A stretch of 24,000 nt of DNA. Source: Dehalococcoidia bacterium (lineage in GTDB: Bacteria; Chloroflexota; Dehalococcoidia; GIF9; AB-539-J10). The notes beneath the pieces were generated by a model. That model made no database searches and was not told where the DNA came from. It was given only the letters and a program-made list of their open reading frames with translations. Made by a program: the position numbers and the translations under genes. Shown piece by piece: positions 12,416-24,000 of the stretch (position 1 is the first letter of the stretch; every line of letters begins with the position of its first letter). The DNA lies in NCBI GenBank assembly GCA_030612025.1, contig JAUWOR010000001.1:151790-175789 (forward strand), in the 5' to 3' direction.

Positions 12416-13765
12416 TCAAGGTTGAAGCTCTTTGACCATATAAGCGATTTCTAATCTATAGCCAAGTGAGCGAAAGTAATCTCTACTTCCAACGCCACTC
12501 AAAACACTCAGCTTCCCAGCAAGGAATTCCTCCCGAGCAATTCTCTCTGCTTCTCGAAGCAACTTTTCCCCTAAACCCCTGTGCTGAGCAGCCCGCTCTC
12601 GCTTTTCCCCTAAGGGGACCTCAGAACCAAAGACATGTAGCTCCCTGATTAAAGCTGAGCCAATATTGATCCTGAGCCTTAATAAGCCAAATAAGGTCTC
12701 ATTGGCATCCTCGTAGGAAAGAAAAATTTCCTTCCCTCCGTAAGTTTCATAGTCCATCCTGAATAGCCAAGGCTCGCCAATCATCCAGCCATCCCTTAAC
12801 CTATGCCCATATTCCCGACAGCGAATACAGCGACAATGAAGGCCCAACTCGCTCATCCGCTTCCTGACGCTCCCCCGCAACGCCAGGTCTCTGCTGCCAG
12901 CAATGATAAATTTGCTGGGGATATCCCGCATCAGCCTGGGTATTCTGACATATTTGGGAATCAGGGTTTTGATATTCACCAGTAAATCTATCATCTCCCC
13001 ATCCTCATAAGGCTGGTATTTGTTATCTCGATACCATTCCTCTAGCTCACTTCCTACAACCACCAGCGTAGGGTAAAGCTTGAGCCCATCGGGTCGGAAA
13101 TATTCATCAGCGAATAATTTCCGTGATAGCTCCAGGTCATGCTCCGGCGTCGAGCCAGGCAGACCAGGCATCCAATGATAGTAGACCTTAAAGCCATAAT
13201 CCCTCAGTAACCTGGTGGCAGAGATGACCTCAGCTACTCCATGCCCTCTCTTCGTTAAACGGTGAATGTCATCATCCAGCGTCTGTACCCCAAGCTCCAC
13301 CCTGGTAGTGCCAAAATCAAGCATACTCTTTATCTCCACCTCTCCACACCAATCAGGCCTGGTCTCAATACATAATCCCACACAGCGACGCTCAGCAGTT
13401 TCATTCATTTTCTTGGCTTCCTCTAAGTTAGCCGAAGGAACACCATTGAGAGCATCATAGCAGTCCTTAACAAATTGATATTGATACTCACAAGGGTAAG
13501 CTAGAAAGGTGCCTCCCATGATGATGAGCTCTATTTTATCCACTGGATGTCCCATATCAGCCAATGTCCTGAGCCGGAACTCCACTTGCCTTTTGGCATC
13601 AAAGTTACATTTCCTGGCGCGAAGAACCGCCGGAGATTCTATGGTGTAGCTCTTTGGTGCTTCAGGAGAGCTGGGGCAATAAACGCATTTGCCAGGGCAG
13701 GGGAATGGCTTGGCCATAACCGCCACCGGTGTTACCCCGGAAATAGTGCGCGATATTTTCTTCAT
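12416..13765 (-). CDS. elp3: Elp3-type radical SAM / GNAT tRNA U34 carboxymethyl-modification enzyme (short bacterial form)
   Basis: 449 aa. It has a radical-SAM cluster region (...PFPCPGKCVYCPS...), a TIM-barrel core and a C-terminal GNAT with QHRGLGEKLLREAERIA. The size and N-terminus match the compact bacterial Elp3 known from Dehalococcoides (from memory). Confidence 0.9.
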   Translation of the reverse strand: MKKISRTISGVTPVAVMAKPFPCPGKCVYCPSSPEAPKSYTIESPAVLRARKCNFDAKRQVEFRLRTLADMGHPVDKIELIIMGGTFLAYPCEYQYQFVKDCYDALNGVPSANLEEAKKMNETAERRCVGLCIETRPDWCGEVEIKSMLDFGTTRVELGVQTLDDDIHRLTKRGHGVAEVISATRLLRDYGFKVYYHWMPGLPGSTPEHDLELSRKLFADEYFRPDGLKLYPTLVVVGSELEEWYRDNKYQPYEDGEMIDLLVNIKTLIPKYVRIPRLMRDIPSKFIIAGSRDLALRGSVRKRMSELGLHCRCIRCREYGHRLRDGWMIGEPWLFRMDYETYGGKEIFLSYEDANETLFGLLRLRINIGSALIRELHVFGSEVPLGEKRERAAQHRGLGEKLLREAERIAREEFLAGKLSVLSGVGSRDYFRSLGYRLEIAYMVKELQP

Positions 13766-13795
13766 GCTACACTAAAGTTTAGCAGAGCTTATTCT

Positions 13796-14446
13796 ATGAC
13801 CACAAATAGAGAAGTATTCGACCAAATAGCTGAAAGCTGGTATCGGGTAAGACACTGGCCCCGGTTAAGGAAAGAGCTGGAAGAACTAGCCCAAAGGTGG
13901 CAAAGGGGGGAATTGCTTAATGTTGGCTGCGCCCACGGTCCCGACTTCCTGTCTTTCACACAGGGCTTCGGACTGTGGGGGATAGATTTCTCTTCACAAA
14001 TGCTCAAGCAAGCACAGAGATATTCACTTAAATTCAATTTTTATGTCAACCTAATAGCAGCTGATATGCTTTCGCTACCCTTCCCTGACAACACCTTCGA
14101 CTGGGCAATCGCAGTGGCCGCTTATCACCACATAAAGGGCAAGAACAACAGAGAAAAGGCATTTTGTGAATTAAAACGGGTGCTAAAACCGGGAGGCGAA
14201 GCTTTCCTGACCGTATGGAACCGGGGGCAGCCAAGGTTCTGGCTAAAATCCAAAGAGCAAGAAGTTCCCTGGAGGCTAAGAGGTAAAACCGTTTACCGCT
14301 ATTACCACCTCTTCTCCTATGGCGAGTTAAAAAAACTACTCACCCAGGTTGGCTTTGAAATTATCACCATCTCTCCCGAGAGATCCTACCACTTCCCCAT
14401 AAAGAACTTCTCCCGCAATATATGCATCCTGCTAAAGAAATCCTAA
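13796..14446 (+). CDS. Class I SAM-dependent methyltransferase, Trm9/ALKBH8-like
   Basis: I chose the start at ATG 13796; the track's 13547 start runs antisense through elp3. Motif I is LLNVGCAHG. Other matches are ...LPFPDNTFDWAIAVAAYHH... and the C-terminal block VYRYYHLFSYGELKKLL, which parallels yeast Trm9 (...FDFAISIAVVHH..., ...YRYYHLYREGEL...) as I recall it. Confidence 0.75.
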   Translation: MTTNREVFDQIAESWYRVRHWPRLRKELEELAQRWQRGELLNVGCAHGPDFLSFTQGFGLWGIDFSSQMLKQAQRYSLKFNFYVNLIAADMLSLPFPDNTFDWAIAVAAYHHIKGKNNREKAFCELKRVLKPGGEAFLTVWNRGQPRFWLKSKEQEVPWRLRGKTVYRYYHLFSYGELKKLLTQVGFEIITISPERSYHFPIKNFSRNICILLKKS

Positions 14447-14535: not shown

Positions 14536-14907
14536 TCATTTTCTTCCTTTCAGAGTTAGTATGCTAGTGGCGAGTATATTAGCAATCTCTGTGGCCTCTT
14601 TTAGAAGTTTATTAACGGTGTCTTTGTCACCTCTGTCGGAATCTCTGAGCAGTCCTAACCAGAACTTGCATTCATTTGCCGACTTCAGTGCATAAGCGAA
14701 GAAGTTGGTATAATCCTTCCTTGAAGAGGCTGCCTGAGCCTCGATTACATTAGCACCAATACTGGTAGTGCTTCGTAAAAGCTGGTCACTGATGATCCTC
14801 GAGGTTTGCTCCACTGACAGCTTATCCACAAATCCGATTACATCCAGTGCAAATTTATAGACACGTCTCTTGAATTCATTTTTAAATTTTGCCTTGTCAT
14901 TTTGCAT
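14536..14907 (-). CDS. Four-helix-bundle protein (23S rRNA intervening-sequence protein / Avd-like family)
   Basis: 123 aa. ...YKFALDVIGFVDKL...QLLRSTTSIGANVIEAQAASSRKDYTNFFAYALKSANECKFWLGLL... is the family signature. Confidence 0.85.
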   Translation of the reverse strand: MQNDKAKFKNEFKRRVYKFALDVIGFVDKLSVEQTSRIISDQLLRSTTSIGANVIEAQAASSRKDYTNFFAYALKSANECKFWLGLLRDSDRGDKDTVNKLLKEATEIANILATSILTLKGRK

Positions 14908-14969: not shown

Positions 14970-17900
14970 TTACGGACTTGGTTGCTCACTGGATGGGTCT
15001 TGACCCACCTTCACCTTCTCAGGAAAGCCAGCTTCGACAAGGCCAATGAAAACCTCCACCAGCTGGGGGTCAAACTGCTTACCAGCGCCTTGCCTAAGCT
15101 GTTTTATCACTTTGTCATCGCAGAAGGCATCACGATAAGGGCGAGCAGAAGTCATGGCAGCGAAGGCGTCAGCTATAGCCAGAATGCGAGCATCCAAAGG
15201 AATAGTCTCGCCTTTAAGCCCCTCAGGATAGCCAGTGCCATCCCACCTCTCATGGTGGTATAAAATGGCAGGCAAACAAGAAACTAAACTAGGCACATTA
15301 CCAACAATGTTGGCCCCAAATTTGGGATGAGACTTAATTGCTTCCCAGTCCTCAGTAGTAAGCTTCCCCTTTTTGTTCAGTACCTTATCAGGAATACCAA
15401 TCTTACCAATATCATGAAGCAAAGCAGCCGTGCTTACTCTAGACACCTCGTCAGGTGACAAGCCGATCGCCTCAGCCAAAGCCACAGCATAAGTGTTAAC
15501 TTTCCTGGAATGACCATAAGTATAATGGTCTCTAGCATCCACTGCTGAGACCAAGGCATAGACAGCGCTTAAGCCACCTCCTCTGGCATTAGCCCCTGCC
15601 TCGATTGGTGGCTCAGACAAAATTTTAGCCGAGAGATAAGTTCGATTGCCGCCGGTGCGCTTGGCATAATAAAGAGCAGTATCACTTGCAGTGATCAACT
15701 CACCGGACATCACTCCATCAGAAGGATAGCTAGCCAAACCAATGCTGCAAGTTATGGCGACTTCCTTAGCTTTCATTTCGCTGGCAATCTGCTCCCGAAC
15801 TCTTTCAGCTACCACGTAAGCATCTTCGCTAATTGTCTGAGGCAAAATGACGATAAACTCATCACCACCATACCGGAAAGCCTGGTCAGCATTCCTGATA
15901 GAGCTCTTGATGATACTACCTATTTGGTCCAGAAGCTCATCGCCAGCAGGGTGTCCATATATATCGTTGTAGGTCTTAAAGCCATCGAGGTCGAGCATGA
16001 GCAAGGAGAATATATTACCGTAGCGGGAATGTCGGGCAATTTCTTCTTTAAGCCGCTCTTCAAAATGGCGACGGTTAAATAGCCCGGTGAGCTCATCAAT
16101 GCGAGCCCTCTGCTCCGCCCTAGCATAGAGCTGGGAGTTCTCAATGGGTGTAGCAATCTGCAAAGCCAAGTGCTCCAGAAGTCGTATTTGCTCGGTATTA
16201 TAGGCAGCAGCTCGGCGACTGGCCACAATCAAGCTGCCGATACCCCCACCCCGGACAACCAGGGGCAGGTAAACAATAGAGCGAACTCCCCGTCTCAGAT
16301 GATGCTCTCCAGTCCAGAATCTTTTATGTCGTGCCAGATTAGCTTCATATAAGCTCCTCTTCTCCTTAGCCACCCACTCAGTAGCTGTGCCCTCAAGTGG
16401 TATCCTCTCCCCTACTTTCCACGCTGAACCGATAGTGCTAGATAGAGCTAAGAAACGAAGCTCAACTCCTTCAATCAAAGCAATTGTGCCCCAGTCAACA
16501 TCAACTACCTCCTTTAGCGCTTGAGCAAAACCTTCAAATATCTCCTCGATGTTCATACTCGAGGTTATAATTGTAGTTAAACGATTGACGAGGGTTAATT
16601 CTTTGTCCTGCTGTTCCAATTGCTCATGGAGATATTCTTTTTCCATACTGGCGGCCACCTGGCCAGCAATGGACTCCATTAAATCAAGCTCTTCAAGGCG
16701 ATAAAGCTTTCCATTTCGCTTGTTGCCCACCGCCAAAATAGCCACAAGCTCACCCCTATTTATTAAAGGAACGAGCATTTGTACTTTTGCCGATTGAATA
16801 TCTTCTTTTTCCTCTTGCCACAAACCTTGAAATTCGGGGAGGATGCTGAGGTTCCTTTCAGGTAGTGTTTGAGCCTCCCGCTTCAGCCAGGCCACAATAG
16901 GGCTATCATGCCTCACTTTCAACTTCGCTACAGGATTATCTTCCACAGGAGGATAGCTAAATCGGGGAGCAAAATCTCCACTCTCAGTTTGGGGTAAAAG
17001 CAAACAGGCTCGGTGACAATCAATCGATTGAGAGAGTAAGGACACAAGCTGGCTGCCAAACTGTTCCAGAGTGGGAACACTGTGTATTTTGGCGATAAAG
17101 TCATGTAATCTGTGCCGGGGCTCAATTCTCTCACCGTAGAAGACTCGATCCACTCTCCCAAAAATTTTGTTACGCACCCGATACCAAAAAGGGGCTGCTA
17201 TAGCTCCTGTGCATAACATGGCAATAATAATAGTAGGAAAGCCGAGCTCAAAGCCAAACGCTTTTAGGAGCAAGAGAAGCCCGGCAAAAAAGGTAACTAC
17301 GAGTAAGGCAGCCATGCCGCTGAAACTCAACGCCTCACGGAGAACAACTCTGACATCGAGCAACTTATGCCTTACCACAGCATAGGTCAAGATACCAGCA
17401 TTGAGTAAATTGCCAACATGGGCAAAAGGATACCCCCTTCCAAAAGGAAAGAAAGTGCTCGAGGTAAAAGTAATCAAAATAGCAACACCCATGAATAAAT
17501 AAACAATTTGGTTGCGCTCTGCTGGGTCAGCTAAAACCCTGTGCCGGCGAGCTAAAGAATATATGTCTCTGCCACCCAAGGCGAAGATGCCGGAAACTAT
17601 GAGAATATACCAACTACCATACTGAACATTGATGCCGCTAGCAGTAATATCCATACCCTGTGGGATATAGCCCAGCGCTGCCAACACAATCATGCTTACT
17701 ACCAAAACGTAGGCCAAGGGTATTTTGATGTGCTGACGCCGATAAAAAGAACATAAAAAGTAATGATATTGAACCCCCATCCAGATGCCAAAGCAGATGC
17801 CAACTTTAGTCAGAAGGAGCCTATGCGGCACAAGAAAGCCGCTGCGGAAGAAAAAGCCGCTAAGGCTCCACAGCACGGCAGGAATCAGCAATAGAAGGAA

Positions 17901-18002
17901 AAACTTTTGTTTTCTACCCCAGGGGCGGTTGCTTAACAAAACGACAAACAGGGGGATATAAGCAATGGTGGCAATTAAAGGGATTAAAGCCTGAATATTC
18001 AT
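14970..18002 (-). CDS. Membrane-anchored c-di-GMP turnover protein: N-terminal 7TM sensor region, GAF domains, GGDEF diguanylate cyclase, HD-GYP phosphodiesterase
   Basis: 1010 aa. The first ~280 aa carry about 7-8 TM spans. The central region is GAF-like. The GGDEF domain has an intact active site (RYGGDEFIVIL) and an RxxD I-site (RNAD). The HD-GYP domain is intact (LLHDIGKIGIP..., YHHERWDGTGYPEGL). Confidence 0.9.
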   Translation of the reverse strand: MNIQALIPLIATIAYIPLFVVLLSNRPWGRKQKFFLLLLIPAVLWSLSGFFFRSGFLVPHRLLLTKVGICFGIWMGVQYHYFLCSFYRRQHIKIPLAYVLVVSMIVLAALGYIPQGMDITASGINVQYGSWYILIVSGIFALGGRDIYSLARRHRVLADPAERNQIVYLFMGVAILITFTSSTFFPFGRGYPFAHVGNLLNAGILTYAVVRHKLLDVRVVLREALSFSGMAALLVVTFFAGLLLLLKAFGFELGFPTIIIAMLCTGAIAAPFWYRVRNKIFGRVDRVFYGERIEPRHRLHDFIAKIHSVPTLEQFGSQLVSLLSQSIDCHRACLLLPQTESGDFAPRFSYPPVEDNPVAKLKVRHDSPIVAWLKREAQTLPERNLSILPEFQGLWQEEKEDIQSAKVQMLVPLINRGELVAILAVGNKRNGKLYRLEELDLMESIAGQVAASMEKEYLHEQLEQQDKELTLVNRLTTIITSSMNIEEIFEGFAQALKEVVDVDWGTIALIEGVELRFLALSSTIGSAWKVGERIPLEGTATEWVAKEKRSLYEANLARHKRFWTGEHHLRRGVRSIVYLPLVVRGGGIGSLIVASRRAAAYNTEQIRLLEHLALQIATPIENSQLYARAEQRARIDELTGLFNRRHFEERLKEEIARHSRYGNIFSLLMLDLDGFKTYNDIYGHPAGDELLDQIGSIIKSSIRNADQAFRYGGDEFIVILPQTISEDAYVVAERVREQIASEMKAKEVAITCSIGLASYPSDGVMSGELITASDTALYYAKRTGGNRTYLSAKILSEPPIEAGANARGGGLSAVYALVSAVDARDHYTYGHSRKVNTYAVALAEAIGLSPDEVSRVSTAALLHDIGKIGIPDKVLNKKGKLTTEDWEAIKSHPKFGANIVGNVPSLVSCLPAILYHHERWDGTGYPEGLKGETIPLDARILAIADAFAAMTSARPYRDAFCDDKVIKQLRQGAGKQFDPQLVEVFIGLVEAGFPEKVKVGQDPSSEQPSP

Positions 18003-18013
18003 AATGTGAGGCT

Positions 18014-18042
18014 ATTATTGACATAAATGTGGAAGCTGTCAA
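18014..18042 (-). promoter_or_regulatory. Near-consensus sigma70-type promoter giving a leaderless or near-leaderless transcript of the GGDEF/HD-GYP gene
   Basis: The minus strand reads TTGACA (18042-18037), a 17-nt spacer, AATAAT (18019-18014), then 11 nt to the ATG at 18002. No SD lies between. Confidence 0.4.
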
Positions 18043-18070
18043 GGGAGACTAAAGTAATACAAAAAGATTC

Positions 18071-18163
18071 GTAGCGCAGGGGCTTGTCCCCGCATGTTCC
18101 TCGCCAAATAAGGGGCGGACAAGGGCCTTCCCCATAATGGCCGAGGACAAGCCGCGGCACTAC
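18071..18163. repeat. GTAG...CTAC long hairpin element
   Basis: Runs from gtagcgcaggGGCTTGTCC to GGACAAGCCgcggcactac, with a 9-bp perfect pairing between 18081-18089 and 18146-18154. The tail is atttgtac. Confidence 0.55.
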
Positions 18164-18179
18164 ATTTGTACATCACATT

Positions 18180-18240
18180 GTAGTGCGTGGCTTTAGCCTC
18201 GTGCCCGGTAACGATGCACGACCCTAAAGGGTCGTACTAC
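18180..18240 (-). repeat. GTAG...CTAC two-hairpin element, long variant, inverted orientation
   Basis: gtagtgcg-tggctttagcctcg-tgcccggtaacgatgcac-gaccctaaagggtc-gtactac is the reverse orientation of the 21787-21848 copy. It shares the same 14-nt inter-hairpin insert. Confidence 0.8.
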
Positions 18241-18284
18241 ATTTATGAGATTGCCATGCTTCGCTCGCAGTGACGAAAAGGAGA

Positions 18285-18316
18285 GGGGCGAGGCTTTAGC
18301 CTCGCCCCTACGATTG
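18285..18316. repeat. Single-hairpin module (ggggcgaggctttagcctcgcccc) with a tacgattg tail
   Basis: Perfect 11-bp stem. It shares the gaggct/agcctc arm with the GTAG elements and its tail with 12396-12406. It sits 20 nt downstream of the GH3-B stop. Confidence 0.6.
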
Positions 18317-18335
18317 TTTGGCTGCTAGGCTCAGT

Positions 18336-20006
18336 TCAGCGAGTAGCGGCTCGCTCGGCTTCAGTTACCGGCACAGCCTCCACTACAACCCTGGGAGCTC
18401 CAAGCAAGGAAAGCACTCTATCTGAAAGGTTAATATGCGGCGGCTTCAGGCTGCCCAAATCAGCACCCTCAGCCTGACGTTGAGAGATATAGCGAGCAAA
18501 AGCACCTTGAGGAAGAAAGGTAACCTCTATAGGCTTTAGGCCAAGCACAGTCTCCGGGTCACCGTAGACCCTGTATTGGTTATAGTGGTATACGCTATCC
18601 AGCTTTTGCAGTTCGCCATATACAGTTGCCGCTACAGCTTTTTCGCTGGCAATATAATTTTCCTTGAGTTCCAGATAGAGATGTAATATTGCCCCGTCTC
18701 CGATTGCTTCTTTACGGGCTGTCCAATCTTTATAAGGAATGCCGCTGTTTTCAATCGCTTCCCAAATCACTTTTTCTGTAAGACGCCCAAATCCGGAAAT
18801 ATCAATACGGTCATCAGCCCGGCTATAAAACAGCACCTGGGGGATATCAATGTTCAACTTCTCATTTCGCCGCGAAGTTATCCTTATTATATCGCCAATC
18901 CTATACCTGACAAAGGCCCCACCATGAAAATTAGTAAGAACTATCTCATAATTCTCACCCTCTTTTACTTCATCCAGTAAAATAGTTTTCGGCTGGTAAG
19001 AATGGTCTAATTGCCACTTGAAGCATTCCCCTTCAGGGATAAATTCAAAGAAGCTGAAAGTGGGGATAAAAGTCATGCCTTCGTAATCCCAGGTTTGTAT
19101 AGCACAATAGCCTCCTTCACAACTGGCATAATGCTCCAGAGGGCGTCTGCCCCATAACTCCTCCACTCTTTTCTTGAAAATTGTGGCATCACTGCCAGCG
19201 CATATTATCCCTCGCACTGCCCACAGGTCTTTGGGCAACAAAGAGCGACGAGCCAGCTTGCTCCTAACTAATCCTCTGGCTACTCGAAATAGTGCCCCGG
19301 GATGAGCTAACAAAAAACGGATGCTTATGTCTCCCGTTCCCCTCTTAATTTGCTCTCCCACATAGACTAATGCCGAGCCTAGGCCACCGAAACCATCAAG
19401 GCCACGGTATAGAGCTTCCTGGAAGCCAAGCTTTATGCACTGCTCAAAAGATAACTCTTCTCCCTGGGAAGGCAACAAGTCGCAGTTGATTGTTTCTTTT
19501 GTTAAGCAACCTAAAAAACCCGTCCCATACTCTGGAGCCCCTGTAGTATGCAACACCTTTAAGTGTTCCTTAAGCCTGGAGAGATCACCTTTACTCTTAC
19601 AGGTGGAAAAAATAATCTCGGCTACCAGCACCCTCTCTAATTCACGAACAAAACCCACCGAGAAGGGTATCCATTTAATATAGGATTTTTCCGACGTACC
19701 TGAAGTTCTCACCCATCTGGCAACCTTGGCTGGTAAGACGTCCTCCCTTCTTTCTATAAGTTCAGGGCAATAATCAGCATAGATGGTTAATGGCACCTGC
19801 TCTCGGAACTCCTCCACCGTGGTAGGCATGGCACCACGCATGACCTTCTTGCCGAGCTTACAATTTTTCAGCAGCTCAATCTGCTCCAAAAGCAACCTCT
19901 TCTGGATATTCATAAATCGCTCCAAGCTGACGTCAATAAAACCACAGCACGTCTGCCATAATTCTTCCTTTTCCCCCCGGCGTAATAACTCAATTGGCCT
20001 GGTCAT
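18336..20006 (-). CDS. GH3-family adenylate-forming enzyme (acyl acid-amido synthetase-like), paralogue B
   Basis: 556 aa. GH3/ANL motifs are WVRTSGTSEKSYIKWIP, YASCEGG and VRYRIGDIIRITS...IPQVLFYSRADD, plus a C-terminal LKPPHIN. SD aggaggtg. Confidence 0.85.
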   Translation of the reverse strand: MTRPIELLRRGEKEELWQTCCGFIDVSLERFMNIQKRLLLEQIELLKNCKLGKKVMRGAMPTTVEEFREQVPLTIYADYCPELIERREDVLPAKVARWVRTSGTSEKSYIKWIPFSVGFVRELERVLVAEIIFSTCKSKGDLSRLKEHLKVLHTTGAPEYGTGFLGCLTKETINCDLLPSQGEELSFEQCIKLGFQEALYRGLDGFGGLGSALVYVGEQIKRGTGDISIRFLLAHPGALFRVARGLVRSKLARRSLLPKDLWAVRGIICAGSDATIFKKRVEELWGRRPLEHYASCEGGYCAIQTWDYEGMTFIPTFSFFEFIPEGECFKWQLDHSYQPKTILLDEVKEGENYEIVLTNFHGGAFVRYRIGDIIRITSRRNEKLNIDIPQVLFYSRADDRIDISGFGRLTEKVIWEAIENSGIPYKDWTARKEAIGDGAILHLYLELKENYIASEKAVAATVYGELQKLDSVYHYNQYRVYGDPETVLGLKPIEVTFLPQGAFARYISQRQAEGADLGSLKPPHINLSDRVLSLLGAPRVVVEAVPVTEAERAATR

Positions 20007-20045
20007 AGCACACCTCCTATACCGTTTGCCATATTGCCATCCAGC

Positions 20046-21719
20046 TCAGCGAGCAGCGGCTCGCTCAGCTTCGGTTGTCGGCACAGCTTCCACCACAACC
20101 CTGGGAGCTCCGAGCAAGGAAAGCACTTTATCAGAGGGATTAATATGCGGCGGCTTCAGATGCCCTAAATCGGCTCCTTCAGCCTGCCGCTGGGAGATAT
20201 AGCTGGAAGAGGCACCTTGAGGAAGGAAAGTAACCTGTATCGGCTTTAGATCAAGCAGTTTTGCCGCCTCACCATAGGCAAACTTATAAAGATTGAAATT
20301 ATATATGCTATCTAATTTCTGAAACTCCTCGTACACCGCGGCTGTCACGGCTTGTTCGCTGGCGATGTAGTCATCTTTAAGCTCAAGATAGATGTGCAAT
20401 GCCGGCTTGTCACCAATTACTTCCTTACGGGCTACCCAATCGGCATAAGGAATGCCCGTGTTTTCAATCGCCTCCCAGATGAGTTTCTCAGTAATGTGGC
20501 CGAAGCCAAATATATCAATAAGTTCATCAGCTCGCCTCTCAAATACCATTTGGGGGATATCAATATTCAGCTTTTCATCTCGCAGTGAAGTTATCCTGAC
20601 CATATCACCGATTCTATATCTAACCAAGGCACCACCATGAAAATTGGTGATGACTATCTCATAATTCTCACCAGCTTTCACCTCTTCCAGCAAAACAGTC
20701 TTGGGTTGATATGAGCGGTCTAATTGCCACTTGAACCATTCCCTCTCTGGAACAAACTCATAAAAGTTAAGGCTGGGAACAAAAGTCATCCCTTCATAAT
20801 CCCAGGCCTGCATAGCACAAATACCGCCTTCTGTGCTGCTATAGATCTCGAGCGGAAATTTTCCCCAAAGTTCCTCCACCCTCTTCTTAAATACTCCTGC
20901 ATCTACGCCGCTACCCGCAATCCCTTTGATTGACCATAGGTCTTTGGGCAACATAGGACGACGAGCTAATTTGCTTTTGACTAATGCCTTTGTCACGCGG
21001 AACAGCGCCCTAGGATGAGACAACAGAGGGCGAATATTTGTCTTTCCTCTTTTCTGTTTGAACCGCTCCCCGATAGCGACTAGGACAGAGGGCAAGCCAC
21101 CGAAGACATCAATTCCTTGATACAACCCCTCCTCAAAGCCAGCTTTTATCCTCTGCTCAAAAGACATCTCTTCCCCTTTAGAAGGCAACAAATCACAACC
21201 TATAGCCTGTCGCACTAAGCAAGCCATTATACCTGATGCATACTCTGGAGGTCCCATGGTGAATAACATTCTTAAGTGCTCTTTAAGTCTGGAAGTATCA
21301 CCTCGACTGCTACAGATCCCAAGGAGAGCAAGCCCTCCGGCCACTTTTTCATATTCACGGGCAAAATCCTCCGACATAGGCACCCACTTAACATCATACT
21401 CTCCGGTCTTGCCCGAAGTACGCACCCAGTGAGCAACCTTGGCTGGCAAGACATCTTCCCTTTTCTCCACCAGCTCAGGGAGATAATCACCATAGGTGGT
21501 TAAAGGCACCTGCTCTCGAAATTCCTCCACAGTCTCGGGCATAGCCCCACGCATTACCTTCCGGCCCAACTCACAATTCTTTAATAGCTCAATTTGCTCC
21601 AGCAGCAATCGTTTCTGGATGTCCATAAACTGCTCCAAGCTGAGGTCAATAAAGCCGCAGCACATCTGCCATAGTTCCTCTTTTCTCCCCTGCCGCAGTA
21701 AATCAATCGGCCTAATCAT
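20046..21719 (-). CDS. GH3-family adenylate-forming enzyme, paralogue A
   Basis: 557 aa. Motifs are WVRTSGKTGEYDVKWVP, YSSTEGG and VRYRIGDMVRITS. SD aggaggtg. A 39-nt gap separates it from paralogue B. Confidence 0.85.
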   Translation of the reverse strand: MIRPIDLLRQGRKEELWQMCCGFIDLSLEQFMDIQKRLLLEQIELLKNCELGRKVMRGAMPETVEEFREQVPLTTYGDYLPELVEKREDVLPAKVAHWVRTSGKTGEYDVKWVPMSEDFAREYEKVAGGLALLGICSSRGDTSRLKEHLRMLFTMGPPEYASGIMACLVRQAIGCDLLPSKGEEMSFEQRIKAGFEEGLYQGIDVFGGLPSVLVAIGERFKQKRGKTNIRPLLSHPRALFRVTKALVKSKLARRPMLPKDLWSIKGIAGSGVDAGVFKKRVEELWGKFPLEIYSSTEGGICAMQAWDYEGMTFVPSLNFYEFVPEREWFKWQLDRSYQPKTVLLEEVKAGENYEIVITNFHGGALVRYRIGDMVRITSLRDEKLNIDIPQMVFERRADELIDIFGFGHITEKLIWEAIENTGIPYADWVARKEVIGDKPALHIYLELKDDYIASEQAVTAAVYEEFQKLDSIYNFNLYKFAYGEAAKLLDLKPIQVTFLPQGASSSYISQRQAEGADLGHLKPPHINPSDKVLSLLGAPRVVVEAVPTTEAERAAAR

Positions 21720-21786
21720 AGTTACACCTCCTACTAAATTTGAGGCTATTCATTTCATTCCTCTAAGACGCATCTGTTTTCCTAAC

Positions 21787-21848
21787 GTAGTGCGACCCTT
21801 CAGGGTCGTGCATCGCTAACCGGGCACGAGGCTAAAGCCTCGCACTAC
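21787..21848 (+). repeat. GTAG...CTAC two-hairpin element, long variant
   Basis: gtagtgcg-gacccttcagggtc-gtgca[tcgctaaccgggca]c-gaggctaaagcctc-gcactac, with tail gtttttgaacagcc. Confidence 0.8.
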
Positions 21849-21989
21849 GTTTTTGAACAGCCTCAATTATTAGCTTGAGGACACTATGACAGGGCTTAAT
21901 TTAATTGGGAAGTGATTATGTTCTAGAAGATAGTTCTATTTGAAGCTGTAAAAAGTATGACTGCGGGGAAAATGTGGGAAAGGTGTTTC

Positions 21990-22310
21990 TTAACCGCTCT
22001 TGCCTTTTTGGGAGCTGCCCAGAGCTTGTAACCTCTGGCTTAATTGCTCGAATTCCTTATCCTTAGGCTGCTTGCCTAGTTCCAGCCCATAGCTAATGAA
22101 GAACTCCAGGAAATTACGTAATAGCTCTTTCGTTCCTTCCTGAAACTGGCGAAACTCTTCTCTGCTTACCCCATCATGCCTCTTACTTTCTTCTTTCAAT
22201 TGGTTATCAATGAGAAAGTCAATGAACTCGGAACGACCCAGGTCACCACGATTGTCGTCTATCTTTTTCACCAGTTCAGCATCTACTATCAGCATTCTTT
22301 TTTCAGACAT
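21990..22310 (-). CDS. Small hypothetical protein with an RHH-like N-terminus
   Basis: 106 aa with SD gaggag 6 nt upstream. The N-terminal MLIVDAELVKKIDDNRGDLGRSEFIDFLI has a beta-strand/helix pattern like CopG/RHH. This is a weak, pattern-only assignment. Confidence 0.5.
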   Translation of the reverse strand: MSEKRMLIVDAELVKKIDDNRGDLGRSEFIDFLIDNQLKEESKRHDGVSREEFRQFQEGTKELLRNFLEFFISYGLELGKQPKDKEFEQLSQRLQALGSSQKGKSG

Positions 22311-22353
22311 ATAACGCTCCTCTCAAATCATGATACCCCCTACATTTTATTCA

Positions 22354-22445
22354 GGCTGTTTAATTTTGCCTCATCCGGATTCTCGTAGTGCGACCCTTTA
22401 GGGTCGTGCACGAGGCTAAAGCCTCGCACTACATTTTTAAACACC
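22354..22445 (+). repeat. Canonical (shortest) GTAG...CTAC two-hairpin element with arms
   Basis: ggctgtttaattttgcctcatccggattctc-GTAGTGCG-GACCCTttAGGGTC-gtgcac-GAGGCTaaAGCCTC-GCACTAC-atttttaaacacc. The outer 8-bp stem (22385-22392 with 22425-22432) is perfect. Confidence 0.85.
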
Positions 22446-22521
22446 TTCATGTTAAATAGGGGGTGACCTTTACAACCTTCTTGTTCTCAGGCACCCCCAC
22501 GATAACCGCAATGCTCAAGCC

Positions 22522-22797
22522 CTAAGCTCCATTGCCATCCCGGAACCCGAGCACTTCCATTATACTATCTATATTCCTAAGCAGCCCCAACCCCTTGTCG
22601 GTCACCCGGTAGGTAACTATTGGGTTACCCACCTCCACTTTATTAATAAACCCATGACTCAACAGAAAACCAAGATATTTCTGTATCTGGCTGTAGCTCA
22701 TATTGGCGCTATACATAATCTCCGTTTTGCCAGCACCATTTTCGCCTACCTTGAGCATATCAGCTATTATCTCGATGTTAGACCGACGCCGATTCAT
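22522..22797 (-). CDS. Winged-helix DNA-binding protein (archaeal-type HTH_45/DUF4364-like)
   Basis: MNRRRSNIEIIADMLKV...KTEIMYSANMSYSQIQKYLGFLLSHGFINKVE...YRVTDKGLGLL matches this wHTH family as I recall it. I prefer the ATG at 22797 (SD ggag 8 nt upstream) to the GTG at 22806. Confidence 0.7.
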   Translation of the reverse strand: MNRRRSNIEIIADMLKVGENGAGKTEIMYSANMSYSQIQKYLGFLLSHGFINKVEVGNPIVTYRVTDKGLGLLRNIDSIMEVLGFRDGNGA

Positions 22798-22830
22798 TGT
22801 CACCACTCCACTCCTATCACCTATAGGCTA

Positions 22831-22953
22831 TCTAATTTTGGTTCCCCATTCAAGTTCAGCCATCTCAGAGGTGTTTCACCCCCAAATTTTTGTAGTTGCC
22901 TGATTTATCAGGCACAGTCGCCCAATAAATTGGGCACCTACATTTTTAAACGG
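22831..22953 (+). repeat. 123-nt structured repeat, copy B (core in 'flip')
   Basis: See 11148-11270. The stems are at 22892-22900 and 22933-22941 (one mismatch) and the core at 22901-22932. It lies 34-156 nt upstream of the wHTH start. Confidence 0.85.
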
Positions 22954-23036
22954 CCTTATTACTATCGTCCTATGACCATTTTACCACAGGCAGAAAAGTT
23001 GTCAATAGAACAATGTTCTACCTTGTCTAATGTGGC

Positions 23037-23117
23037 GGGCGAACCTTTAGGTTCGCCCATTGACACTGGAGCCTTGACATTACGAGACTCCCTTGTCATT
23101 GCGCTCCTCGCAATGAC
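23037..23117. repeat. Two further hairpin modules of the mosaic repeat family
   Basis: gggcgaaccTTtaggttcgccc spans 23037-23058 and gtcattgcg-ctcct-cgcaatgac spans 23095-23117. The latter plus gcaatctcat resembles the reverse complement of 18245-18275. Confidence 0.5.
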
Positions 23118-23193
23118 TAAGCAATCTCATTGGGTTGGGACTCGTCGCTACTCACCGCCCTATCAATGGTAATTAGCTGACCTAAGAGGGAGT

Positions 23194-23249
23194 GTCAATT
23201 GACCTAGGACTAAAAGGTCATTGACAAGGCGGCAGATTATGTTAATGTT
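23194..23249 (+). promoter_or_regulatory. Candidate operator pair overlapping a promoter for the downstream, apparently leaderless gene
   Basis: A perfect 10-bp palindrome GTCAATTGAC lies at 23194-23203 and a near-copy GTCATTGAC at 23217-23225. The near-copy overlaps TTGACA (23221-23226). A 16-17-nt spacer leads to TAATGT/AATGTT. The ATG at 23255 lies about 7 nt after the -10 element, with no SD. Confidence 0.35.
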
Positions 23250-23254
23250 CAATC

Positions 23255-24000
23255 ATGCTGCAATTAAGATCCCTAGAGCAAGTGGAGCAGCTCAAGAGCC
23301 AATTTATTGAGCGGCTCAGAAACCAGGGCTACGAGGTAGAGCAAAACGCCACCCTTACAGGCGAGTCCGGCGGTGAGCACTCCTTCGACATTCTAGCCCG
23401 TAAAAGTCAAGGTTTTACTGTCTATACTATGACCATAGACATTGTTGTGCACGATGATAATCAAGAAATAAGCTTGGCTGAAGTCTTCGCTTTTGATGAC
23501 AAATGCTATGACTGTGGCATTAAAGATAAAATCCTCATTGCCCTTCCCAGACTTGACTCTACAGCGGCCCACTTTACTCAGAGGCAGCGAATAAAGGTTT
23601 TCGATAACGAAAGCCTGGGAATATTTTTAGCCTCACCATCACCATCGCCCCCTCCTCCAGCCAAAAAGGGCGCTCTCAATTGGGAAACGAAGCCTCAATT
23701 TCTAGAATCTTTAGCTGCCACTGGCTACAAAGTTGAGGAGAACGCCAGGGTCAAGGGAAGGTCAGGAGCTGAGTATACTTTTAACATTCTAGCTCAGCTA
23801 GAAGATGGTTTTATAGCACACAAGGTAGGTATAGATGTAATAACCAGAGATGAAGTAAGCTTACCCCAAGTATACCTATTCGATACCAAAGCCTACGATG
23901 CTGGAATTCAGGAGAAGGTTCTTTTGTACTTGGGGGAGCTTGTTCCCGAAGCCAGGCAATTCGCTCAGCAGCAGGGAATAAAGCTCATCAAGATTAAAAG
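23255..24000 (+). CDS. Protein built from tandem restriction-endonuclease-like (Mrr-cat-like) modules lacking obvious catalytic residues; continues beyond the window
   Basis: Open to the window end, so absent from the ORF track. My translation is MLQLRSLEQVEQLKSQFIERLRNQGYEVEQNATLTGESGGEHSFDILARKSQGF...IKVFDNESLGIFLASPSPSPPPPAKKGALNWETKPQFLESLAATGYKVEENARVKGRSGAEYTFNILAQLEDGF...IKLIKIK. Two ~100-aa repeats are joined by a Pro-rich linker. Confidence 0.65.
   Translation, partial: MLQLRSLEQVEQLKSQFIERLRNQGYEVEQNATLTGESGGEHSFDILARKSQGFTVYTMTIDIVVHDDNQEISLAEVFAFDDKCYDCGIKDKILIALPRLDSTAAHFTQRQRIKVFDNESLGIFLASPSPSPPPPAKKGALNWETKPQFLESLAATGYKVEENARVKGRSGAEYTFNILAQLEDGFIAHKVGIDVITRDEVSLPQVYLFDTKAYDAGIQEKVLLYLGELVPEARQFAQQQGIKLIKIK

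Follow-up and report, generated by a model that had tools for sequence, protein, structure and literature searches.

What do two neighbouring GH3-family genes do in a bacterium of the class Dehalococcoidia? The question is raised by a 24,000-nucleotide stretch of a Dehalococcoidia genome (hereafter, the window), in which two such genes, GH3-A and GH3-B, lie in tandem directly before a gene encoding a membrane sensor (Table 1). GH3 enzymes use ATP to adenylate a carboxylic acid, which they then couple to an amine. To our knowledge, no bacterial GH3 protein apart from OlsH has a known role, HisKA_7TM-type domains such as the one resembled by the sensor N-terminus have no known ligand, and cell-cell signalling, surface attachment, and control by cyclic di-GMP (c-di-GMP) are almost unexplored in Dehalococcoides and Dehalogenimonas. 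We found no literature on GH3 function in Dehalococcoides or Dehalococcoidia, on HisKA_7TM ligands, or on a link between GH3 proteins and sensors. Here we report that GH3 genes of this type are partnered with a 7TM-GAF sensor across the class, and that the ligase core and the seven-helix domain of the sensor form two islands of divergence between otherwise closely related genomes.

The window was compared with related loci, all of uncultured Dehalococcoidia: 22 in genomes of its own order, 78 genome loci, and five metagenome contigs. Every locus with enough flanking sequence contained GH3 together with a 7TM-GAF sensor, which was encoded directly downstream in nearly all cases. These genes belong to a cassette, on the minus strand of the window, in the order wHTH (winged-helix DNA-binding protein), p106 (a second small, probably DNA-binding protein), one to three GH3 genes, and sensor. 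Most cassettes carry a single GH3 gene, and where the flank is long enough, p106 is almost always preceded by the wHTH gene. Variants included a run of three consecutive GH3 genes, an additional sensor without HD-GYP, duplication of the p106-GH3 unit (L049, L051, and L057), and duplication of the whole GH3-sensor unit (L060, L062, L066, and L091). One locus (L023:1-15128) contained the whole cassette twice, with two GH3 genes in one copy and a single GH3 gene in the other, the copies being inverted around a DDE transposase; in another (L144:2585-3045), whose p106 protein is identical to that of the window, a HicA/HicB toxin-antitoxin pair was inserted between GH3 and sensor.

This partnership extended well beyond the immediate relatives of the window. 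In a phylum-wide sample, about 28 of the 47 Dehalococcoidia genomes carried a member of the GH3 clade, as did 1 of about 354 genomes from the rest of the phylum, and the cassette partnership occurs in another class of the phylum. Carriers included the cultured organisms Dehalococcoides mccartyi and Dehalogenimonas. The layout in Dehalococcoides is that of the window. At two Dehalogenimonas loci, wHTH, p106, and GH3 were found together, with the sensor gene 1.2 to 2.9 kb away on the opposite strand in divergent orientation; across these two loci and two further ones (G204 and G160), the sensor lay 1.2 to 3.7 kb from GH3. The most distant members had neither wHTH nor p106, and the gene next after GH3 encoded a HisKA_7TM-GAF-histidine kinase. 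At three of these distant loci (L035, L043, and L127) the two genes overlapped by 4 nucleotides. A response regulator gene followed the kinase in both L127 and L129, and the kinase-type loci L129, L130, and L133 had a methyltransferase or PEMT-like gene directly upstream of GH3. HisKA_7TM was matched in orthologues of the window sensor as well as in these kinase-type partners. Because distant relatives swap the output for a histidine kinase, it is the 7TM-GAF input module that stays constant beside GH3, irrespective of the output. A preliminary description of the pair, made from the window sequence, had missed this context. Taken together, these data make a functional link between GH3 and the sensor likely.

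To characterize variation along the cassette, we aligned the window with four close relatives: two loci of the same genus (L028 and L024) and two whose p106 protein is identical to that of the window (L141 and L144). DNA identity in the flanks (Elp3, methyltransferase, HD-GYP, GGDEF, the GAF domains, p106, wHTH, and the intergenic region upstream of GH3-A) was 0.90 to 0.99, the exceptions being a patch in GAF2 of L024, stretches just upstream of GH3-A in L144 and L024, and a variable gene of the IVP family. By comparison, identity was 0.54 to 0.85 in the GH3 core and 0.58 to 0.91 (mostly <0.80) in codons 1 to 212 of the sensor gene. Within the sensor gene, identity to close relatives was 0.61 to 0.87 in these codons and 0.81 to 0.99 (mostly >0.90) in the remainder (L028 and L141). 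Synonymous divergence (dS) followed the same pattern. Against the same-genus relatives, the GH3-A core (codons 51 to 520) showed a dS of 1.4 to 1.8 and 70 to 73% amino acid identity, relative to a dS of ∼0.2 in the flanks; against close relatives, sensor helices 1 to 7 showed a dS of 0.62 to 1.20 and 56 to 66% amino acid identity, relative to a dS of 0.16 to 0.25 in the rest of the sensor. For example, codons 1 to 50 of the GH3 genes in the window and L141 encode 100% identical residues (dS 0.07), and codons 51 to 520 only 70% (dS 1.38). Because dS follows the same pattern, relaxed protein constraint alone cannot account for the two islands. These alignments indicate that the GH3 core and the seven-helix segment are of much older ancestry than the DNA around them. 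The same ranking of divergence was observed, with few exceptions, in 49 other pairs of loci with an output-domain dS of <0.45.

Tandem sensors within single genomes provided a second view of these borders. In such pairs, GAF or GGDEF domains were 96 to 100% identical, whereas the membrane domains were 45 to 62% identical: GAF1 was 100% identical at L060:3317-10085, and at L084:8856-14523 GAF2 was 100% and GGDEF 96% identical. Since GAF domains with a dS of about 0 sit beside divergent membrane domains, this pattern indicates gene conversion that would have halted at the domain border. When divergence of the output domains was controlled for in partial Mantel tests, the GH3 core correlated with the membrane domain (r = 0.33, P = 0.0005), and the corresponding coefficients with GAF1 and GAF2 were 0.11 and 0.09. 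We propose that old alleles of the ligase core and of the seven-helix domain are reshuffled by recombination among close relatives.

Given the island pattern together with GH3 chemistry, as known from the plant enzyme JAR1 (which makes JA-Ile) and from OlsH (which makes an N-acyl amino acid), we tentatively favour the explanation that the GH3 product is the ligand of the sensor. GH3-A and GH3-B would be two catalytically competent ligases that differ in their specificity regions and make small, probably lipophilic, amide conjugates. The seven-helix domain would detect these conjugates, the sensor would then set c-di-GMP synthesis or breakdown, and the type IV pilus ATPase encoded next door, a PilB-like protein with an MshEN domain, would read that output. 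The diversity of the two islands would then reflect specificity of signal and receptor. In this genome, an extra allele, B, would have been inserted behind the resident GH3 gene, and a strain with A and B in tandem would make two signals. More speculatively, signal maker and receptor may form a strain-variable pair that has diversified as pherotypes do. A Dehalococcoidia signalling system not described before, extending to the cultured organohalide respirers and combining a GH3 synthase, a HisKA_7TM-type receptor, many exchangeable alleles that recombine and spread laterally in the order of the window, c-di-GMP output, and possibly pilus control, is conceivable but somewhat doubtful as a whole.

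Known systems offer partial parallels. The plant conjugate JA-Ile, made by JAR1, is the ligand of a receptor, and the logic proposed for the cassette, in which an enzyme makes what a receptor reads, would be the same. The allele pattern is that of peptide quorum-sensing loci: in agrBDCA of staphylococci and comQXPA of Bacillus, the synthase and the membrane segments of the receptor are hypervariable and the flanks conserved (PMC10482373, PMC4408185). The GH3-sensor locus shares this pattern, including the conserved cytoplasmic part of the sensor, without any homology. In contrast to those systems, which use ribosomal peptide signals and unrelated histidine kinase receptors, the cassette has no peptide gene, carries an ATP-dependent ligase, has a c-di-GMP output, and retains a conserved spacer between its islands. 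What is new here is the occurrence of two GH3 clades in tandem before one sensor, the probably lateral B gene, the placement in context of a clade with a variant P-loop (see below), and the two hypervariable islands. The conserved pair offers a testable function both for bacterial GH3 proteins besides OlsH and for HisKA_7TM sensors, and the allele pattern points to residues likely to set specificity while providing natural cognate and noncognate pairs. That D. mccartyi and Dehalogenimonas, which carry the cassette, are bioremediation organisms adds to its interest.

The assignment of GH3-A and GH3-B to the GH3 family, made in the preliminary description, was borne out by profile searches and structure prediction. 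Both proteins passed the Pfam cut-off of 23.6 bits for the GH3 N-terminal domain (PF03321; 35.4 bits for A and 36.0 bits for B, over only positions ∼8 to 111 of the 304 in the profile) and that for GH3_M (PF23571, cut-off 23.6; 61.2 and 58.3 bits, respectively). GH3_C (PF23572) remained below its cut-off of 23.6 bits in the Pfam search, with 18.4 bits for B and no match for A. Because several relatives have a precomputed PF23572 match and the C-terminal domain of the structural model aligns with plant GH3 structures, we read the subthreshold score as probable divergence rather than absence. Neither protein matched Pfam AMP-binding, and a sequence search of the PDB with the window GH3 returned only plant GH3 enzymes. 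An AlphaFold model of GH3-A (pLDDT 82.4) adopted the two-domain GH3/ANL fold, and its best Foldseek matches in the PDB were plant GH3 structures (6e1q, 9fwd, 7vka, 5kod, 4epm, and 4epl; E value of about 1e-21 to 1e-22, probability 1.00, TM 0.48 to 0.55, 13 to 17% identity), followed by a second tier of PaaK-type ligases (E value of about 1e-17 to 1e-20). PaaK-type ligases and amide synthetases (PaaK1, BT_0428, AjiA1, NatL2, and ClxA) share the ANL superfamily and the adenylation chemistry; however, they are about 430 residues long rather than 556, and the window proteins match the GH3-specific N-terminal and middle domains, not AMP-binding. Plant GH3 enzymes (JAR1/GH3.11, GH3.5, GH3.6, GH3.12, and GH3.15) share with the window proteins the Pfam family, the fold, and three nucleotide-binding motifs. 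The differences are the low structural-alignment identity, a P-loop longer by one residue, the GH3_C score, and features specific to the window clade, namely an N-terminal ELWQMCCGF block, a disordered C-terminal tail, and a membrane-sensor partner. We are highly confident that GH3-A and GH3-B are GH3-type ligases.

That bacterial members of the family are essentially uncharacterised, as the preliminary description had it, is out of date. OlsH, a GH3-like lyso-ornithine lipid synthetase of Singulisphaera acidiphila and the sole characterised bacterial GH3, uses ATP to build an N-acyl amino acid from a free fatty acid (PMC12493201). Its family (NF052613) is the best NCBIfam match of GH3-A, yet at 42.6 bits against a cut-off of 620, and GH3-B had no match; the two window proteins are therefore not OlsH. 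OlsH nonetheless suggests an alternative in which the GH3 products are N-acyl amino acid lipids that serve membrane remodelling and the seven-helix sensor monitors the state of the membrane. The sensor domain is polytopic, and some cassettes have a PEMT-like or other methyltransferase gene upstream of GH3, comparable to OlsG next to OlsH. We consider this alternative unlikely, because the OlsH score is far under its cut-off, the cassette showed no OlsI-like O-acyltransferase, and a role in bulk lipid would leave the hypervariable ligase core and receptor helices unexplained. OlsH, for its part, has no sensor partner and is not reported to be hypervariable. Its N-acyl amino acid product and the methyltransferase or PEMT-like gene upstream of GH3 in kinase-type cassettes, paralleling the methyltransferase in the OlsH operon, point to small-molecule chemistry, which is compatible with an amide signal read by the sensor.

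Within the window, the basic features of the pair stood up to reanalysis. The two genes, encoding proteins of 556 and 557 residues, are 39 nucleotides apart, and each has a perfect aggaggtg 4 to 5 nucleotides 5′ of its ATG. The proteins had been estimated by eye as about two-thirds identical, with ∼84% over the first ∼100 residues and a nearly identical end; BLASTP gave 69% identity (83% positives, one gap), and identity was 82% over codons 1 to 50, 84% over codons 51 to 100, and 90% for protein and 89% for DNA over the last ∼29 codons. Strong divergence had also been described just after the P-loop-like motif. The stretches quoted for the two copies (TSGKTGEYDVKWVP / TSGTSEKSYIKWIP) were found, and identity over codons 106 to 135 was only 30%, placing this segment among the most variable of the family. 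All three nucleotide-binding motifs, (S/T)SGT(S/T)xGxxK, Yxx(S/T)E, and YRxGD, are represented in both copies: TSGKTGEYDVK, YSSTE (YSSTEGG), and YRIGD in GH3-A, and TSGTSEKSYIK, YASCE (YASCEGG), and YRIGD in GH3-B. The first loop is one residue longer in both than in the plant and OlsH motifs listed in PMC12493201. With these motifs intact, neither copy looks inactivated.

The source genome is a 1.4-Mb, 95.6%-complete metagenome-assembled genome (MAG), of which GH3-A and GH3-B are the only two GH3 genes. The pairing is not unique to it, since the A+B arrangement recurred in independent assemblies from other samples (L140, L142, L143/L047, and L145), one of which, L140, was 100% identical to the window locus over >7 kb; the pair is therefore not an assembly artefact. 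Two loci labelled as the same MAG, CSMAG_2505, carried different pairs: L047 had the A+B pair of the window (99% identical), and L063 had a C-type GH3 with a B gene at 83%. Either this genome has two cassettes or the bin mixes two strains.

To resolve the relationship between the copies, trees of 122 GH3 sequences from the related loci were built with FastTree and IQ-TREE, leaving out fragments with fewer than about 450 residues in the alignment and identical copies from loci that had been retrieved twice. GH3-B fell in a clade of 13 rows, with support of 100 in both trees, and GH3-A fell outside it, in a different clade. All 13 members of the GH3-B clade were second in line, behind another GH3 gene and directly before the sensor gene. 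A database search with GH3-B returned about 75 clusters at 75 to 88% identity, followed by a drop to ≤72%. In other lineages B follows a GH3 gene from a third, large clade, and same-genus genomes without B have either one GH3 gene or two A-like p106-GH3 units. What had been described as a conserved pair is therefore not a fixed one. Relative to L028 and L141, B is a clean 1.71-kb presence/absence difference. Identity at four-fold sites between the window B and the B genes of another lineage was 0.65 to 0.77, closer than for Elp3 and the sensor against that same lineage (0.48 to 0.57, saturated). Given these values and the same-genus genomes that lack B, the simplest reading is that GH3-B was probably acquired laterally. 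The idea that B moved together with the membrane domain of its lineage was rejected, the window membrane domain not being close to those of B-bearing lineages. In the third clade, often the sole GH3 of its cassette, the P-loop TSG is replaced by HT[V/I/E]G (in full, HT[V/I/E]GR.GEYNFKWVP; examples are L044:5260-6957, L073:5266-6963, and L100:1780-3480). This clade deviates at the position of a serine that is essential in OlsH (PMC12493201). Either the serine may be dispensable there or the chemistry may differ.

These observations bear on the possibility, raised in the preliminary description, that the pair performs two successive or complementary ligations or forms a heterodimer. The ligations would then take place on one scaffold, and the sensor would be a mere neighbour. 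The genes are tightly linked, 39 nucleotides apart and each with its own Shine-Dalgarno sequence; the B type never occurs alone; and, with the canonical P-loop serine missing from its partner elsewhere, B might supply the missing activity. Most cassettes, however, work with one GH3, close relatives lack B and have one GH3, B has partners of different clades in different lineages, and no sequence feature points to an obligate pair. Plant GH3 enzymes, as far as is known, act as monomers. We therefore regard this arrangement as quite improbable.

Several observations weigh against the explanation that we favour, in which the sensor reads a GH3 conjugate. The substrate and product of the ligases and the ligand of the sensor are all putative. 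The GH3 core and the membrane domain are adjacent, so plain linkage could yield the Mantel signal, and in L100 and L102 the GH3 proteins are 96% identical and the membrane domains 66%, indicating that the islands can assort independently. A conserved intergenic stretch also separates the two islands. Between GH3 and sensor, identity to same-genus loci was mostly 0.83 to 0.91 (L028, L141, and the promoter-proximal half in L024), falling to 0.74 beside the GH3-B indel; the region was largely gapped in L024 and, where the HicAB pair is inserted in L144, was not conserved. Thus, the spacer stays conserved between close relatives while both neighbouring islands diverge. In the window, GH3-A/B and the sensor gene appear to be separate transcripts, because a terminator-like hairpin and a promoter-like site lie between them. 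No matching receptor came with B. Given the sequence of the HT[V/I/E]G clade, the family as a whole cannot be assumed to carry out canonical adenylation. Finally, conservation among the GH3 proteins of D. mccartyi is at least 90% (one cluster has 25 members), and no hypervariability was seen among them.

The hypervariable pair might instead belong to an interstrain or antiphage conflict system driven by an arms race. Such a role would fit with old alleles reshuffled among close relatives, with lateral movement of B, and with the transposase and HicAB insertions in some cassettes. Yet PADLOC returned no match for GH3-A, GH3-B, or p106 and only weak matches to generic domains for the sensor and wHTH, the cassette holds a stable chromosomal position beside Elp3 and pilus genes across the class, and no toxin-like or nuclease effector is present in it. 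A conflict system is thus very unlikely.

The similarity of the GH3 termini raised a separate question, since gene conversion had been suggested for both ends of the two genes. Members of all three GH3 clades, from many genomes, share the conserved N-terminus and the tail (LSLLGAPRVVVEAVP.TEAERAA.R), and at the termini, same-locus pairs were no more alike than cross-genome pairs. At the N-terminus, third-position identity was 0.64 between A and B of the window and 0.68 between A and the B genes of other genomes; conversion there was therefore rejected. At the 3′ tail, the corresponding values over 29 codons were 0.79 and 0.61, and the tail of the window B was nearer to A (0.88) than to any other B (≤0.86), a weak hint that local exchange may have affected the last ∼25 codons. 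The suggestion of conversion thus failed at the N-terminus and retains slight support at the tail. Family-wide constraint explains most of the similarity of the termini, to which a role of the ends as recombination anchors may possibly be added.

The C-terminal tail, predicted to be disordered in the AlphaFold model, could also be a docking peptide if the GH3 enzymes modified a protein, p106 or the sensor, instead of producing a free small molecule. The duplication of p106 and GH3 as a unit and the 4-nucleotide overlap of GH3 and kinase genes in distant cassettes would agree with this. However, p106 is highly conserved whereas GH3 is hypervariable, kinase-type cassettes have no p106, and no GH3 with a protein substrate is known to us, so that this alternative is highly improbable. 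Least credible of all is the absence of any functional link, with synteny simply inherited in small, little-rearranged genomes and the islands arising as neutral recombination imports: Elp3 and the methyltransferase are also syntenic throughout with no obvious tie to GH3, but the partnership survives an output-domain swap, is translationally coupled, has been duplicated as a block, and is also seen in another class of the phylum; in addition, many independent pairs have their islands in the same two segments.

Table 1. Features of the GH3-sensor cassette and its surroundings in the window (positions numbered from the first nucleotide of the window)
Feature	Position	Strand	Description
Elp3 and class I methyltransferase genes	12416-14446		Head to head; Elp3 matches TIGR01211 (575 bits)
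23S-rRNA-IVP-family gene	14536-14907		Between sensor and methyltransferase genes; variable insert
Membrane sensor, 1010 aa	14970..18002	-	Polytopic N-terminus (HisKA_7TM-like plus two more helices), GAF, GAF, GGDEF, HD-GYP; from Pfam and hydropathy
Seven-helix domain (sensor codons 1-212)	17366..18002	-	Second hypervariable island
GH3-B/sensor intergenic region	18003..18335	-	Palindromic repeat elements and promoter-like site
Promoter-like site for sensor gene	18014-18042	-	TTGACA-17-AATAAT
Terminator-like GC-rich hairpin	18284..18309	-	Just 3′ of GH3-B stop; 11-bp stem with 9 G-C pairs, T-rich tail
GH3-B, 556 aa	18336..20006	-	Second GH3 gene, directly before sensor gene
GH3-A/GH3-B spacer, 39 nt	20007..20045	-	Holds GH3-B Shine-Dalgarno sequence; read from sequence
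GH3-A, 557 aa	20046..21719	-	GH3-family adenylate-forming ligase; hypervariable allele at first GH3 position
p106, 106 aa	21990..22310	-	RHH-like N-terminus by eye, helical C-terminus; probable regulator
Winged-helix DNA-binding protein (wHTH)	22522..22806	-	HTH_45/Sso10a family; first cassette gene; Pfam HTH_45 78 bits, NCBIfam Sso10a 74.6 bits (cut-off 60)
PilB-like ATPase, 760 aa (start)	23255..24000	+	Divergent; Mrr_cat-like N-terminus (tandem modules), MshEN, T2SSE; heads type IV pilus operon
GTAG-type palindromic repeats	18179-18240, 21784-21851, 22384-22435, 23033-23059		Paired ∼27-nt hairpin units in cassette intergenic regions

In the sensor sequence, the motifs GGDEF, RNAD, and HHERWDGTGYP were read. 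The p106 protein was well conserved, with a mean column identity of 55% in an alignment of 29 sequences and a ratio of nonsynonymous to synonymous divergence (dN/dS) of 0.07 to 0.13. Its AlphaFold model (pLDDT 77) has four helices; p106 matched no Pfam or NCBIfam family, and neither its fold (Foldseek) nor its profile matched any PDB entry. The RHH-like label comes from the sequence pattern. The GTAG-type repeat copies that flank the GH3 pair are in inverted relative orientation. An Rfam search of positions 17800 to 23400 gave no match, hence no riboswitch.

The PilB-like ATPase gene continues past the window (L148:145-2427), its product matching T2SSE with 414 bits and MshEN with 59.5 bits, and is followed there by T2SSF (PilC), pilin, and PilM genes. 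The same neighbour was found in L022, L044 to L046, L140, and L141. MshEN is a c-di-GMP-binding domain, and the ATPase is a plausible reader of the c-di-GMP output of the sensor. On the other side of the cassette, the Elp3/methyltransferase pair was present in almost every related locus. Because a distantly similar methyltransferase is encoded directly upstream of GH3 in kinase-type cassettes, the class I methyltransferase might belong to either system. The IVP-family gene is absent from the same-genus locus L024 and ∼50% identical in L028, with both of its flanks >90% identical.

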